Shown piece by piece: positions 1-57,202 of a stretch of DNA of 64,000 nt. The notes below the pieces were generated by a model. That model was not told the DNA's origin. It saw nothing but the letters and a program-made list of their open reading frames with translations, and ran no database searches. The translations under genes were made by a program, and so were the position numbers. Source of the stretch: Bacteroidales bacterium (GTDB lineage: Bacteria > Bacteroidota > Bacteroidia > Bacteroidales > UBA12077); contig WTBR01000050.1 of the NCBI GenBank assembly GCA_013138975.1, forward strand, positions 3,123 to 67,122. Reading direction: 5' to 3'. How positions within the stretch are numbered: position 1 is the stretch's first letter; the number at the start of each line of letters is the position of its first letter.

Positions 1-437
1 ATTTGGTGAACTAAAGTTGGAACTGTTGATCTTAAGTAAATTAAAAGATCGGGTGGTTGAATTAATGAAGTCATTAATTTGAAAAGAGTATAATAATTAT
101 CAAAATCACGAGTAGACATTAAACCCATTGAATGAAGGTTTGGAGCAAATATAAATGCATCTTCATATATTGTTCGATCTTGAATTACTGTTTTTCCTGA
201 TTTTCTAATGTTTAAGATCTGACTTAATCGACTATTTAAGAAAAATAACTGTAAGTTAAATGACCACCGTTGCATATCTTCATAAAAATCGTTTAAATAT
301 GGATTATCATCAACATCTTCATAATGTGCTTCCCAATTATAGTGCTTTGACAATAAACCTGCCAGAGTAGTTTTTCCCGATCCGATGTTGCCGGCAATTG
401 CAATATGCATTGCGCCGTTTGAATTATCTTTTGCCAT
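1..437 (-). CDS. deoxynucleoside kinase (runs off the left edge)
   Basis: Translated by hand: MAKDNSNGAMHIAIAGNIGSGKTTLAGLL...EDVDDNPYLNDFYEDMQRWSFNLQ...QDRTIYEDA; P-loop GNIGSGKT and DRxxxED motif. Not in the ORF track. Confidence 0.93.
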   Translation of the reverse strand, partial: MAKDNSNGAMHIAIAGNIGSGKTTLAGLLSKHYNWEAHYEDVDDNPYLNDFYEDMQRWSFNLQLFFLNSRLSQILNIRKSGKTVIQDRTIYEDAFIFAPNLHSMGLMSTRDFDNYYTLFKLMTSLIQPPDLLIYLRSTVPTLVHQ

Positions 438-51124: not shown

Positions 51125-51153
51125 ACAATAGTTTAAGAATATATCAAGTATTT

Positions 51154-51448
51154 ATTTACTTAATGCTTCCGTGCCACCAACAATTTCGAGAATTTCGTTT
51201 GTGATTGAGGTCTGATGCGCTTTATTGTATGTTAACTGAAGTTCTCTGGATGAGCGTTATCTATAAATCGAAGCAGCCCAACGTAGTTTTCAACTCAAGC
51301 ATAGCATCTTAAAACTTTATTTTTACGGATTTCATAATAAACTCTTTTAGAATATATTATTCTTCTTAAGTGGGAAAAATAAATTCAAGATTACCACCGT
51401 AGAAGAAAAACTTACAGATATTCTTATTTACCCATATAAGTGGCAACC
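51154..51448 (-). pseudogene. relic copy 1 of the atpG 3' end
   Basis: Minus strand reads ...YILKEFIMKSVKIKF*DAMLE... and RELQLTYNKAHQTSITNEILEIVGGTEALSK*; about 14 mismatches in 90 bp versus 56330-56419. Confidence 0.9.
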
Positions 51449-51474
51449 GACATAATATTAGTCTGAAGTTGCCA
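51441..51474. other. attC-like inverted core pair
   Basis: TGGCAAC-N20-GTTGCCA perfect inverted repeat upstream of the TA pair. Confidence 0.45.
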
Positions 51475-51585
51475 GTAAGCCAAAAAGAGACACTCCTGTG
51501 CTAAACAAATTATTTTTTGCAATAATGAATCGAATGTTTCCAAATACAGAAACAAAATACTATCTTTGTAAGAAAATAATGAGAA

Positions 51586-51930
51586 ATGGACAAACTAGTT
51601 GAAGTAGAATTGTTACCTGAAGCAGAAGAATTTGTTCATAAAATAGAAATTCAAGCAAGGAAAAAGCTTTTTTATGCAATTCGAAAAACTAAAAACAGAA
51701 TTTTTGGTAATTGGTTTGAAAAAATGCGAGGTTCTAATGGAATATTTGAATTTAGAGTCAAAGAATTTGGAAAATATTATCGCTTGTTTGCATTTTGGGA
51801 CAGCACCAGAGAAACAGAAACGTTAATAGTTTGCACTCATGGAATTATTAAAAAGTCAAATAAAACACCAAAAAAAGAAATTGAAAAAGCGGAAAGAATT
51901 AAACAAGAATATTTTAAAGGACTGATTTAA
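51586..51930 (+). CDS. RelE/ParE (HigB/Gp49-like) toxin
   Basis: IFEFRV...YRLFAFWD...THGIIKKSNKTPKKEIEKA; TATCTTTG -7 box at 51561. Confidence 0.9.
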   Translation: MDKLVEVELLPEAEEFVHKIEIQARKKLFYAIRKTKNRIFGNWFEKMRGSNGIFEFRVKEFGKYYRLFAFWDSTRETETLIVCTHGIIKKSNKTPKKEIEKAERIKQEYFKGLI

Positions 51931-51941
51931 ACTGAAATATC

Positions 51942-52262
51942 ATGGCAAAAAAGAAACATACAAGATTTGAAGATTTAGAAGACAAATATTTTGGTAAAGT
52001 TGGAACACCGGAAAGGGAGCAGTACGAATTTGACCTAAATATGGAAATGATTGGCGATAAGATTAAACAGCTTAGACTTAAAAAACATATGACACAAACA
52101 GAATTAGGTGAACTCATAGGTGTTAAGAGAGCTCAGATTTCAAAACTAGAAAATGGTAATCATAGCGCATCTATTTCAACCTTAATGAAGGTTTTTCACG
52201 CCATGAAAGCAAAAATTAAATTCCGAATAGAATCCGATGATTCGGTAGAATTTGCATTCTAA
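51942..52262 (+). CDS. XRE-HTH antitoxin (HigA-like)
   Basis: MTQTELGELIGVKRAQISKLENG; downstream of the toxin. Confidence 0.9.
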   Translation: MAKKKHTRFEDLEDKYFGKVGTPEREQYEFDLNMEMIGDKIKQLRLKKHMTQTELGELIGVKRAQISKLENGNHSASISTLMKVFHAMKAKIKFRIESDDSVEFAF

Positions 52263-52281
52263 ATAAAAAGACCTACCGGCA

Positions 52282-52774
52282 ATCAAGTAGACGGCTGACG
52301 GTCTATTGACCGCCAGTACGCCTCTCACACCGGTATTGCTTACGCAATAATGTACGGTTCTCGTATACAGCGGTTCGTTAAGTTGTGGGAAAATTCGTTT
52401 GTAAATATCGAGTAAAGAAATATACCCTCGCTTTCTCAACCTTTCCAAAGTGATAGTAGTTCCAAGTATTGGACGTTACTCATGTATTGTTAAATTATTA
52501 TGGTATTCGTGATTGCTTCGCAATTGTGCAATAGCCCAACCACCCATTCTTGATCTACTCCATGCATAAGCTTGACCTTGTTCAACTCCTAAACGGATCA
52601 GCTTTTTCCTTTTCCGCTGCCCTACCCTACAAGCTGGCTCTTCCCTAAAATTGTTCACTGAACAATTTCTTAACGGGAAGCCCTCCAATGATGCCAGATG
52701 CAGTATCTGAGCCTGTTACGAATCCATCCGTCAATTTCGTTGAGTTTGTTGTAAATACTTGCCATTCGGTAACC
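52282..52774 (-). mobile_element. group II intron 3' relic (maturase C-terminus plus domains V/VI)
   Basis: GYRMASIYNKLNEIDGWIRNRLRYCIWHHW..RKRKKLIRLGVEQGQAYAWSRSRMGGWAIAQ..PILGTTITLERLRKRGY; DV GAACCGCTGTATACGAGAACCGTAC..GGTGTGAGAGG; end CTACTTGAT. Confidence 0.92.
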
Positions 52775-53318
52775 GAGGAATGAAAAAACAGAGGAATAAA
52801 ACAGCAATTAGAATACGCCATTCTAACTGCAGAAATATCAAAAGCAACTTTTGGGCTAACACCCTCAGAATATAAAAAAATAAAAGAGCTTAAATATCAA
52901 AATTTACGTGACCATATGACTGACCTTGAATTGATTTTTTCAATGTTAGGGGAAGCTTCAACAAAAGAAATTGTAAAGACTAATACCAATTATTCATCAT
53001 AGTGTCGTATAAATAAATTAAATTATTTTTTTCATTTACGAGGTATAAAACATTTGCATAGCCACAGCTACGGAAATTTTTTCTGCCGAAGTAAATGGGA
53101 AAAAGAAGTAATTTATATGCGACAATATGGTGCATAAATGGTATAAGTACCCGAAAGGTTTTAACGAAAATAAAAAAGCAGCAAAACAGGGTGGTGCAGT
53201 TGCAGGTAATGCAAGACGTGAACTAGAAAGCAAAACCGGAAAAAAAGTTGTATCAAATAACAATTATCTTCCTGAAAAGAAAAAAAATAAAGAATTAGGA
53301 AATGAGGAAAAGAAATAA
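52772..53318 (+). pseudogene. Bro-N/antirepressor-like protein pseudogene, C-terminal half, interrupted
   Basis: TEE*KNRGIKQQLEYAILTAEISKATFG...NLRDHMTDLELIFSMLGEASTKEIVKTN, ~166-bp insert, then PKGFNENKKAAKQGGAVAGNARRELE. Confidence 0.8.
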
Positions 53319-53377
53319 TTATTTATAAAACAACTCAAAGGGCATTTATAGTTTGAAAATAATAAAGGCCTTTGGTA

Positions 53378-53474
53378 GTCGAGTATATGGCTCTGCCACT
53401 AAATAGTAGCAGAGTACAACTCTTTCACCGCAATTACTCTCGTAATTGTGTGCGAGTCTCGTCTACAGCGGTTC
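53378..53474 (-). mobile_element. second, more degraded group II intron DV/DVI relic
   Basis: GAACCGCTGTAGACGAGACTCGCAC...GTGAAAGAG...CTCTGCTACTATTTAGTGGCAGAG...TACTCGAC. Confidence 0.7.
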
Positions 53475-53530
53475 ATCTAATTTTTTTCCAGACAATAATA
53501 ATTTTTAAAACTTCACAAGCATAACTAAAT

Positions 53531-53686
53531 CTCAAGCATAGCTTCATAAAACTTTATTTTTATCGATTTCAAGATAAACTCTTTTACAATATATTGTTCT
53601 TCTTTTTACTGAAATAATAAAACTAAGATTACTACAGTAGAAAAAGAATTTACAGACATTCTTATTTACCTATGCAAGTACAAACC
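53531..53686 (-). pseudogene. relic copy 2 of atpG internal 3' segment, direct repeat of 51294-51448
   Basis: Minus strand IVKEFILKSIKIKFYEAMLE versus atpG IVKELIPKSLKIQFYEAMLE. Confidence 0.85.
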
Positions 53687-53951
53687 TATATTATATTATT
53701 CTGGAGCAAGCTTTTAAAAAAAAACGGTAAACAAAAAAAGTTTGTAGTTAATATAAAACTTATATTGCCAAATCTCGTATTGTTTATTTTATTTACTATC
53801 TTCACTAAACTATAATATGTACAAGGAATTCATATTAAGTATATAGGTGGACAAAAGATGAACATAATAACAAGTTGATCAGCTTGAAGTTGATTTAGAA
53901 TAAGAAGTTTTAAGTCAATTAATAAAATATTAAATTGACAATAATAAAGTA

Positions 53952-56323: not shown

Positions 56324-57202
56324 TCAACTACTTAATGCCTCCGCACCACCAACAATTTCAAGTATTTCATTTGTAATTGAGGCCTGGCGTGCTTTATTGT
56401 AAGTTAATTGAAGTTCTTTAATTAATCCGGTAGCGTTATCGGTTGCTTTATGCATAGCAGTCATTCTTGCACCATGCTCTGCAGCAATAGATTCAAGCAT
56501 AGCTTCGTAAAACTGTATTTTCAATGATTTTGGTATTAACTCCTTTACGATTCCTTCCTTTGTAGGTTCAAAAATATAATCAAATGACTCATTTGAATCA
56601 ATCTCGTCCGGGAGTTCTATAGGCAAAAACTGCACTGCCGATAACTCCTGAACTGCAGCATTTTTAAATTTATTGTACACAATAATAACCTTATCAAACT
56701 CTTTATTTAAGTATTTTTGCATTACATCCTCAATAAATGGAATTGCACGGTCAAAATTTAAATGATCCAATATGCTATTGTCACTGCTAAGTAGCTCAAC
56801 CTTTTTTGAATGAAAATATTCTGTTCCTTTCTTCCCAACGGATATAATAGAAACATTTCCTTCTTTATACGCATCGGCATAATCTTCATTTAAAAGACTT
56901 AATACCTGCTTTGTTACATTTATATTAAAAGCTCCACATAAGCCTTTGTTTGAAGTAATTGCTATTAGTAATATTTTTTCAGGAGTACCGGGACGTGAAT
57001 AAATATTTTCTTCATCATGCTCGATACTTTGATTAATATTAAATAATATTTGATGTAATTTACCGGCATAAGGCCTTAAATAAATAACAGCATCCTGTGC
57101 TTTTTTAAGCTTTGCTGCTGAAACCATTTTCATGGCACTTGTAATTTGCTTTGTTGACTTTACAGAAGCAATTCGAGTACGTATTTCCTTTAAATTACCC
57201 AT
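56324..57202 (-). CDS. atpG: F1 ATP synthase gamma subunit
   Basis: MGNLKEIRTRIASV...RQASITNEILEIVGGAEA. Confidence 0.99.
   Translation of the reverse strand: MGNLKEIRTRIASVKSTKQITSAMKMVSAAKLKKAQDAVIYLRPYAGKLHQILFNINQSIEHDEENIYSRPGTPEKILLIAITSNKGLCGAFNINVTKQVLSLLNEDYADAYKEGNVSIISVGKKGTEYFHSKKVELLSSDNSILDHLNFDRAIPFIEDVMQKYLNKEFDKVIIVYNKFKNAAVQELSAVQFLPIELPDEIDSNESFDYIFEPTKEGIVKELIPKSLKIQFYEAMLESIAAEHGARMTAMHKATDNATGLIKELQLTYNKARQASITNEILEIVGGAEALSS

Follow-up and report, generated by a model that had tools for sequence, protein, structure and literature searches.

Positions 51469-53500 of the window, the 64,000-nucleotide stretch of contig WTBR01000050.1 from a Bacteroidales bacterium, are the decayed wreck of at least two gene cassettes, a toxin-antitoxin (TA) pair and a second unit, cassette X, each with a 5'-truncated group II intron stump. 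We think it likely that the TA pair is a former cassette now stranded outside an integron, and that its attC site was lost to a class IIC intron of the attC-targeting kind which has itself decayed. This reading draws on the ends of the TA unit, on homologs that still carry attC sites and on the target-site rule of full-length relatives of the intron. Contigs of the window's own genome (G000; 221 contigs, 6.8 Mb, GC 31%) are given C-numbers below, L-numbers are locus labels, and the features of the region are collected in Table 1.

Ends and homologs of the TA unit

The left end of the TA unit carries GTTGCCAGTA at 51468-51477, where a longer motif, GTTGCCAGTAAGCC, spans 51468-51481, and 10 nt past the antitoxin stop stands CTACCGGCA, whose right end, like that of GACCTACCGGCA, falls at 52281. 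The unit extends from TTGCCAG… to …CCGGCA|AC (51469-52281), and its G|TT 5' boundary is complementary to the cassette's own R'': G|TTGCCAGTAAGCC matches GACCTACCGGCAA at 10 of 13 positions in the window, and the ends of the L150 copy at 13 of 14. The motif GTTGCC[AG]GT occurs 59 times in 13.6 Mb (both strands of the window's genome), with ~5e-4 occurrences expected within 118 nt upstream of the toxin, so that its scarcity places the left motif, 118 nt 5' of the toxin, beyond chance. It is also the exact point where homology to the independent L150 copy begins; genome-wide, the motif showed no association with other cassette ends, C6 excepted. These data support GTTGCCAG and CCGGCAA(C) as the R'-derived start and the R'' end of a TA cassette. 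What a sequence-only reading of this region had said of the motif pair and of the intron 3' end on the bottom strand all holds, the last intron base being 52282 and not 52283. Its description of the cores as non-canonical is not really borne out for this clade, in which position +2 is always a purine and the later positions are loose, and an intact paralogous attC of this genome has GTTGCCAGTTGTAG.

Homologs of the pair were compared using a covariance model for attC-type hairpins built from 24 intron target sites. A paralogous TA pair in the same genome (C6:26140-26677) ends …TAAGCTACAACTGGCAAC (unit end …CTACAACTGGCAAC) and runs directly into a 142-nt attC that is intact, with a bottom strand ending …CTGT|TGCCAGTTGTAG and the R'' complement GTTGCCAGTTGTAG; the window counterpart of this end reads …CCTACCGGCA|[intron], that is, GT|TGCCGGTAGG. 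No complement of the C6 R'' was found within 5 kb as a left boundary of that cassette. Metagenomic TA homologs with 70-75% protein identity (L156, L158-L160) lie between attC matches of 41-101 bits, starting with G|TTGGCAAC… and ending in …GTTGCCAAC, and in the L114 and L121 loci one or two introns occupy the attC belonging to a homologous TA cassette. The closest copy (L150-L152; 95% protein and 88% DNA identity) stands in another genome between a DUF6134 gene and rbfA and shares the unit exactly, from G|TTGCCAGTAAGCC to …GGCTTACTGACAA|C (…CTGACAA|C; L150 unit end …GGCTTACTGACAAC), the DNA outside being unrelated. The proposal that the pair is a former integron gene cassette is thus supported by its R'-derived start, its R'' end and its attC-flanked homologs. 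A further homolog at 81% identity (L153) lies between ~25-nt direct repeats, TTGCAAGGCC[CT]A[GC]TTTAACCC, placed ~100 nt 5' of the toxin start and ~135 nt past the antitoxin stop, which suggests that this copy was integrated by another kind of process.

By its domain matches the pair is predicted to be a type II TA system of the HigB/Gp49-HigA kind with both genes intact. Its open reading frames (ORFs) have the same lengths as in homologs; the toxin has 770 of these, the best at 95% identity and equal length, and the antitoxin partners the toxin in every homologous locus inspected. The upstream palindrome (51535-51554) and the TAnnTTTG box are kept 5' of the TA homologs in L150, L153, L154, L156, L158 and L161, a conservation which suggests that the cassette brings its own regulated promoter along with the operator. 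Integron TA cassettes are thought to stabilize arrays. The pair is the sole part of the remnant that is intact, and presumably it acts as an addiction or stress module stabilizing the island.

The intron stump and the target rule of its family

The intron end joins the R'' half-site on the bottom strand. The + strand reads ATCAAGTAG at 52282-52290, the reverse complement of CTACTTGAT, and the bottom strand across the junction reads …GCCGTCTACTTGAT|TGCCGGTAGG, where TGCCGGTAGG is the 3' exon. Aligned to the full-length L048 intron, Delta-intron 1 covers approximately positions 1545-1916 of 1916, some 370 nt at the 3' end, interrupted by insertions at 52332-52351 (a hairpin replacing the 3' strand of domain V), 52478-52526 and ~52631-52686; compared with the full-length copy these add 56 nt and 48 nt besides the hairpin. 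Given its truncation, frameshifts and broken domain V, we predict that Delta-intron 1 is unable to splice or move, and we regard it as a dead, inert element. The maturase fragment seen by the sequence-only reading is real: it has a weak Pfam GIIM match (E 3.4e-4), 70-87% DNA identity to the genome's other remnants and E-values of 8e-31 and 6e-20 against a full-length relative. No intron model matched in Rfam scans of the whole window, at the gathering threshold or with permissive settings, because domain V is disrupted and the stump is too decayed, and the class assignment therefore had to come from relatives.

The hairpin before GGTGTGAGAGG was considered as a variant domain V and rejected, for the spacing between catalytic triad and bulge is wrong and the relatives have a normal domain V there; at this position the window holds a 13-20-nt insertion relative to them. 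Small hairpins of GNRA type (such as TTGC-GTAA-GCAA and CAATTAC-GAGA-GTAATTG) are inserted in several stumps, in the window (52332-52351, 52478-52526, 52631-52686) as well as on C94, C108, C115 and C197, and the pairing of the one before GGTGTGAGAGG is kept by compensatory changes across stump copies. Another intron remnant (C126:5370-6800; L003, L011, L017) contains a ~1.4-kb IS110-family element, whose insertion point falls precisely where the 3' strand of domain V (…GTACAGT) meets GGTGTGAGAGG, the place at which other copies bear the 13-20-nt hairpin.

Our search with the ~50-nt 3' terminus (GGTGTGAGAGGCGTACTGGCGGTCAATAGACCGTCAGCCGTCTACTTGAT) revealed ten copies in the genome, all of them 5'-truncated; no RT domain was found near these ten stumps, and the only intact group II introns of this genome belong to other classes. 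With the 102-aa maturase piece of C126 as query, 473 relatives were identified in GTDB species genomes at up to 90% identity, mostly in Marinifilum, Prolixibacteraceae, Labilibaculum and Draconibacterium. Full-length relatives measure 1913-1971 nt, begin with GTGTGCC and end in …CTACTCGAT, and 668-nt ORF-less derivatives and head-to-tail arrays are found among them. At L048 and L088 (Marinifilum sp. and Draconibacterium sp.) introns follow one another directly (…CTCGAT|GTGTGCC…), with up to five consecutive copies in L088 and the 668-nt forms included. The 438-aa intron-encoded protein of L048 has RVT_1 and GIIM and no endonuclease domain; of this the window retains a frameshifted remnant of domain X.

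The RNA of the relatives matches RF02001, RF01998 and RF00029, the same set as in terminator-inserted Bacillus and Clostridium introns. The best protein matches outside the Bacteroidota are likewise Bacillus and Clostridium introns, with 42-44% identity and the 5' end GTGTGCC, and the intron of Bacillus thuringiensis pBMB7 lies directly behind a textbook terminator (AAAAAGACGTGG…CCACGTCTTTTTTTAT|GTGTGCC). Insertion directly behind terminators is a hallmark of class IIC. On a Clostridium felsineum plasmid (L143:502-883) a IIC intron follows immediately 3' of a guanidine-I riboswitch, presumably behind its terminator. We assign the full-length relatives, which come from Marinilabiliales and other Bacteroidota, to class IIC.

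The junctions of the relatives obey a strict rule. Among 45 independent 5' junctions position -2 is G in all and positions -3 and -1 are T in 44 each, while -5 and -6 differ even where copies within a single genome are almost identical; all 35 independent 3' junctions have T at +1 and a purine at +2. The joined exons fold into constant hairpins of ~135 nt, AACGG…TTGT|T, and an alignment of 24 sites shows compensatory changes at 18 of 23 predicted pairs. The pattern is consistent with recognition of a short IBS1 and a DNA hairpin in place of IBS2, a class IIC feature. The family inserts at …TGT|T in hairpins of attC type, using their bottom strand and running antisense to the cassette gene. At the window locus, where the 5' exon is lost, the 3' exon T-GCCGG is antisense and lies 19 nt from the antitoxin stop. 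According to published descriptions, IIC-attC introns enter the bottom strand of attC within R'', at TTGT/T, and run counter to cassette transcription; they also occur in integrase-less clusters (PMC7923331, PMC3001079, PMC4424553). The target rule of the family agrees with this description, which places it with the attC-targeting kind as the sequence-only reading had guessed; neither a non-IIC maturase nor full copies without site preference were found.

It is also conceivable that the intron sits behind the ordinary terminator of a chromosomal TA operon (beyond CCGGCAAC), the usual location of IIC introns, in which case the complementary 10-mers would be coincidental or serve TA regulation. 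Firmicutes IIC relatives do sit behind terminators, and IIC-attC introns keep some terminator targeting (PMC7923331), but IIC introns that target terminators follow the hairpin and are oriented in sense, whereas here the stump is antisense with no hairpin in the 19 nt between it and the stop. Further, the left motif is the exact homology boundary with L150 and the window R'' matches that of the C6 attC, and we consider the terminator explanation very improbable.

Probable stranded cassettes, array remnants and flanking relics

The covariance model identified at least 45 strong attC-type hairpins in the window's genome, scoring up to 116 bits and spread over ~35 contigs, with small clusters on C171, C48 and C90 and many singletons. 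No integron integrase was found in the genome, as had been proposed; the best TIGR02249 (IntI) score, 74 bits, fell short of the cutoff of 265. The genome resembles a graveyard in which integron parts lie scattered but the integrase is absent. It also contains several C-terminal recombinase fragments, and one of these adjoins an intron fragment back to back (C187:2524-3076). A stump at C94:12964 abuts GT|T, and the intact paralogous site at C115:49306-49447 has an identical 20-nt flank, indicating that stumps in this genome did enter attC sites at the canonical point. On C115 (41780-47720; L147) four repeat units of ~160-250 nt start …TAAC(G/A)…AGTTTGTCTAAAAACTG; two end in the 3'-terminal 75 nt of the intron, convergent ORFs finish just past three of the four, and the units look like composites of attC and intron stump that spread with cassettes.

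An integrase-less array with non-canonical GTTGCCR cores had been suggested for the window, and this suggestion stands only in part: the integrase is missing and two cassette remnants are present, but there is no array of attC sites. With filters off, the model found no attC in the window, the best score being 19 bits at an unrelated place with nothing in 51-54 kb, and the TA cassette has lost its attC body. One might still imagine an array that is, or was until recently, live and recombines at the GTTGCCR cores, and both the complementary cores on either side of the TA pair and the tandem arrangement of two cassette remnants, each with an intron stump, would fit. Besides the absence of attC, however, the left flank is a MazG-like pseudogene, cassette X is 5'-truncated and GTTGCC[AG]GT is unassociated with cassette ends other than C6, so that this possibility is largely refuted and we give it hardly any credence.

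Several observations weigh against our preferred reading, that of a stranded cassette that lost its attC to an intron. The likeness to IIC-attC introns (S.ma.I2, G.s.I1, N.e.I1, Sh.ba.I2; reportedly treated by Quiroga 2008 and Léon & Roy 2009) is one of target site and shared features, and membership of the S.ma.I2 clade is putative. The window R'' (CGGCAAC) is a poor fit to RYYYAAC. All ten stumps in the genome (10/10) are without an attC body, for which simple independent deletions are an awkward explanation, and the insertion into attC at the window locus is read from homologs and the R'' half-site, the attC body, the 5' exon and the integrase being gone. Finally, the covariance-model search found no attC hairpin at the closest TA copy (L150/L151) either; that copy is part of a 1.1-kb insertion, inside which units meet at bare …CAAC·GTTG… junctions, and the TA unit might therefore use a site shorter than the classical attC. 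The insertion (L151:888-1972 compared with L167:1489-1501 of a related genome) lies between a promoter box and rbfA, is larger than the TA unit and comprises three units joined by bare …CAA(C/T)·G·TTG… with no attC hairpin; an empty site for it was sought in metagenomes and none was found. It is possible that in L151 attC hairpins collapse to R''·R' scars or that the TA unit uses a minimal site.

Such junctions invite a reading in which the TA unit was never an integron cassette. It would be a module with 13-14-bp inverted repeats, moved at a palindromic CAAC·GTTG site by a Xer-like or other tyrosine recombinase in the manner of pdif modules, and the intron would merely have found a GT|T beside some hairpin. 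The L150/L151 copy, with its 13/14 inverted repeat, its lack of an attC-model match and its three consecutive units joined …CAATG|TTGCC…, …CAACG|TTGGT… and …TCAAC|…, favors this. So do the recombinase genes found 8-40 kb from intron-bearing arrays in four relatives: two of them (L126, L127) score 230 and 223 bits with the XerA-type model (NCBIfam NF040815, "tyrosine recombinase/integron integrase", cutoff 220) and 205 and 199 bits with the IntI model, below its cutoff. However, full attC hairpins stand at the same R'' position in the C6 paralog and in TA homologs that share 70-75% protein identity, the intron family is seen only at …TGT|T and mostly in attC-model hairpins, and a CAAC·GTT junction predicts the 5' exon …CGT, which occurs at 0 of 45 junctions. 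We therefore regard a pdif-like module as unlikely. A related idea is that the bare R''·R' junction (…CAAC·GTTG…, 13-14-bp inverted repeats) is a minimal, hairpin-less attC for the XerA-like integrases of Bacteroidota, with the TA unit and its short neighbors in L151 as cassettes that recombine there, or else that abortive retrohoming systematically deletes the attC hairpin; we hold this to be improbable, and if its retrohoming version were true, introns would be a mechanism that strands cassettes outside integrons.

The surroundings of the stranded cassette are relics as well (Table 1). The sequence to the left of G|TT is not an attC; it is a fragment of a MazG-like pseudogene, whose intact counterpart (C144:39600-39900) encodes 110 aa with a Pfam MazG match at 1.7e-8. 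The fragment belongs to a repeat in which an atpG 3' fragment (-) lies back to back with a MazG-like 3' part (+), with the same junction in both copies; the intact atpG of the window lies at 56324-57202, and its product aligns by tblastn to the first relic in stretches of 30 aa (87% identity) and 32 aa (56% identity), stops being present. Copy 2 of mazG' runs to its own stop codon (C144 tail vs relic 2 tail, 0/300 shuffles) and copy 1 does not; it is cut at G|, where the TA unit starts, so that the cassette start is joined to non-attC sequence at the integrase crossover point. Nothing significantly similar to the mazG' tail that copy 1 lacks was found right of the intron stump. The 178-nt repeat R (51291-51468, 53528-53706) was rejected as an attC, for it does not fold (z -1.3, 0.2) and is a composite of atpG' and mazG'. 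The sequence …ATACTTGAT at 51141-51150, considered as a third stump, is merely the atpG' stop region. A Pfam scan of the cassette X fragments gave no match, and 3' exons of relatives resemble the end of this cassette (TACC…). Delta-intron 2 is 74% identical to Delta-intron 1 over 62 nt and has the same domain V hairpin architecture.

Table 1. Positions in the window, strands and supporting evidence of the cassette, intron and relic features.
Feature	Positions	Strand	Evidence
atpG' relic, degenerate AtpG residues ~208-291, repeat R copy 1	51158..51386	-	tblastn of window AtpG and DNA alignment
MazG-like 3' fragment, pseudogene, cut at …CTGAAG| by the TA unit start	51375..51468	+	86% DNA identity to C144 ORF
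Left cassette boundary G|TTGCCAGTAAGCC (R'-derived), inverted repeat of the R'' end	51468..51481	+	homology boundary with L150-L152, motif frequency
Palindrome TGTTTCCAAATACAGAAACA (putative antitoxin operator) and TATCTTTG, Bacteroidetes-type -7 box	51535..51568	+	conserved upstream of TA homologs
Toxin, Gp49/HigB-like (RelE fold), 114 aa, intact	51586..51930	+	Pfam PF05973 at 1.4e-13
Antitoxin, HTH_3 (HigA-like), 106 aa, intact	51942..52262	+	Pfam PF01381 at 3e-13
R'' half-site GACCTACCGGCA|, where attC is cut (bottom strand GT|TGCCGG)	52270..52281	+	homologous ends in C6, L150
Delta-intron 1, 5'-truncated IIC intron: frameshifted X/maturase C-terminus, disrupted domain V, domain VI	52282..52777	-	alignment to L048 and C126, GIIM match
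Cassette X remnant, two fragments of a 5'-truncated gene	52781..53318	+	frame translations
R''-like half-site GGCCTTTGGTA| of cassette X (bottom strand GT?|TACCAAAGG)	53367..53377	+	abuts 3' end of stump 2
Delta-intron 2, ~120-nt 3' stump of a diverged copy (…CATATACTCGAC), fused to truncated atpG' relic	53378..53500	-	similarity to Delta-intron 1
Repeat R copy 2: atpG' residues ~218-237 (-) and MazG-like fragment (+) to its own stop	53528..53751	both	repeat and DNA alignments, tblastn

Proposed history and known counterparts

We hypothesize the following course of events for the stranded TA cassette. While the cassette was part of an ancestral array, an attC-targeting intron of class IIC would, as a ribonucleoprotein, have recognized the folded bottom strand of the attC and reverse-spliced between GT and T of R'' (IBS1 …TGT, IBS3 T), antisense to the cassette, so parting the TA genes from their attC. 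The next cassette, X, may have been invaded likewise. One or more later deletions would then have taken the attC bodies along with the first 1.5 kb of either intron and the beginning of X, and small hairpin insertions and frameshifts would have completed the decay. The joint at G|TT with a MazG-like pseudogene in a duplicated atpG'/mazG' relic indicates that the TA unit reached a non-attC position, most likely by integrase recombination at a secondary site, either here or in a donor genome. With no attC and no integrase, the cassette should no longer be excisable.

Read in this way, the locus would be a worked example of how a cassette becomes fixed outside integrons, an intron splitting the gene from its site before both decay. 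It raises the question of whether attC-targeting introns immobilize cassettes in addition to a possible part in their formation. Annotators can take the 14-bp ends together with the intron stump as signs that the TA pair is horizontally acquired cargo. More broadly, attC-type hairpins, TA cassettes and multi-copy attC-targeting IIC introns, including ORF-less and tandem forms, are common in marine Bacteroidales and Marinilabiliales; to our knowledge, descriptions of IIC-attC introns have until now come chiefly from Proteobacteria.

The TA pair resembles higBA-type systems in having the toxin gene first, products of 114 and 106 aa and a putative palindromic operator upstream. It resembles the TA cassettes of sedentary chromosomal integrons, CALINs and lone attC sites in being a discrete TT…-to-R'' unit with its own promoter and attC-flanked homologs, but the window unit has no attC body, abuts a MazG-like pseudogene rather than attC or attI and stands in a genome without an integron integrase. 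The intron family shares with S.ma.I2, G.s.I1, N.e.I1 and Sh.ba.I2 a length of ~1.9 kb and an endonuclease-less protein (PMC3001079, PMC7923331), as well as the antisense position at TTGT|T in R'' on the attC bottom strand, splitting gene from attC, also in integrase-less clusters; 5'-truncated, frameshifted copies such as the window stump are known there too (UHB.F1). Unlike those introns, it is hosted by Bacteroidota and not Proteobacteria, its relatives include 668-nt ORF-less derivatives and head-to-tail arrays, and the window copy is a dead stump with a hairpin in place of the domain V 3' strand. Terminator-targeting IIC introns (B.h.I1-like; Bacillus thuringiensis pBMB7) share the Rfam D1-D4 and D5-D6 models, the 5' GTGTGCC and 43% protein identity but lie in sense orientation after intrinsic terminators and not in attC hairpins. 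The locus is thus a fossil of known kinds of element and process, not a new system.

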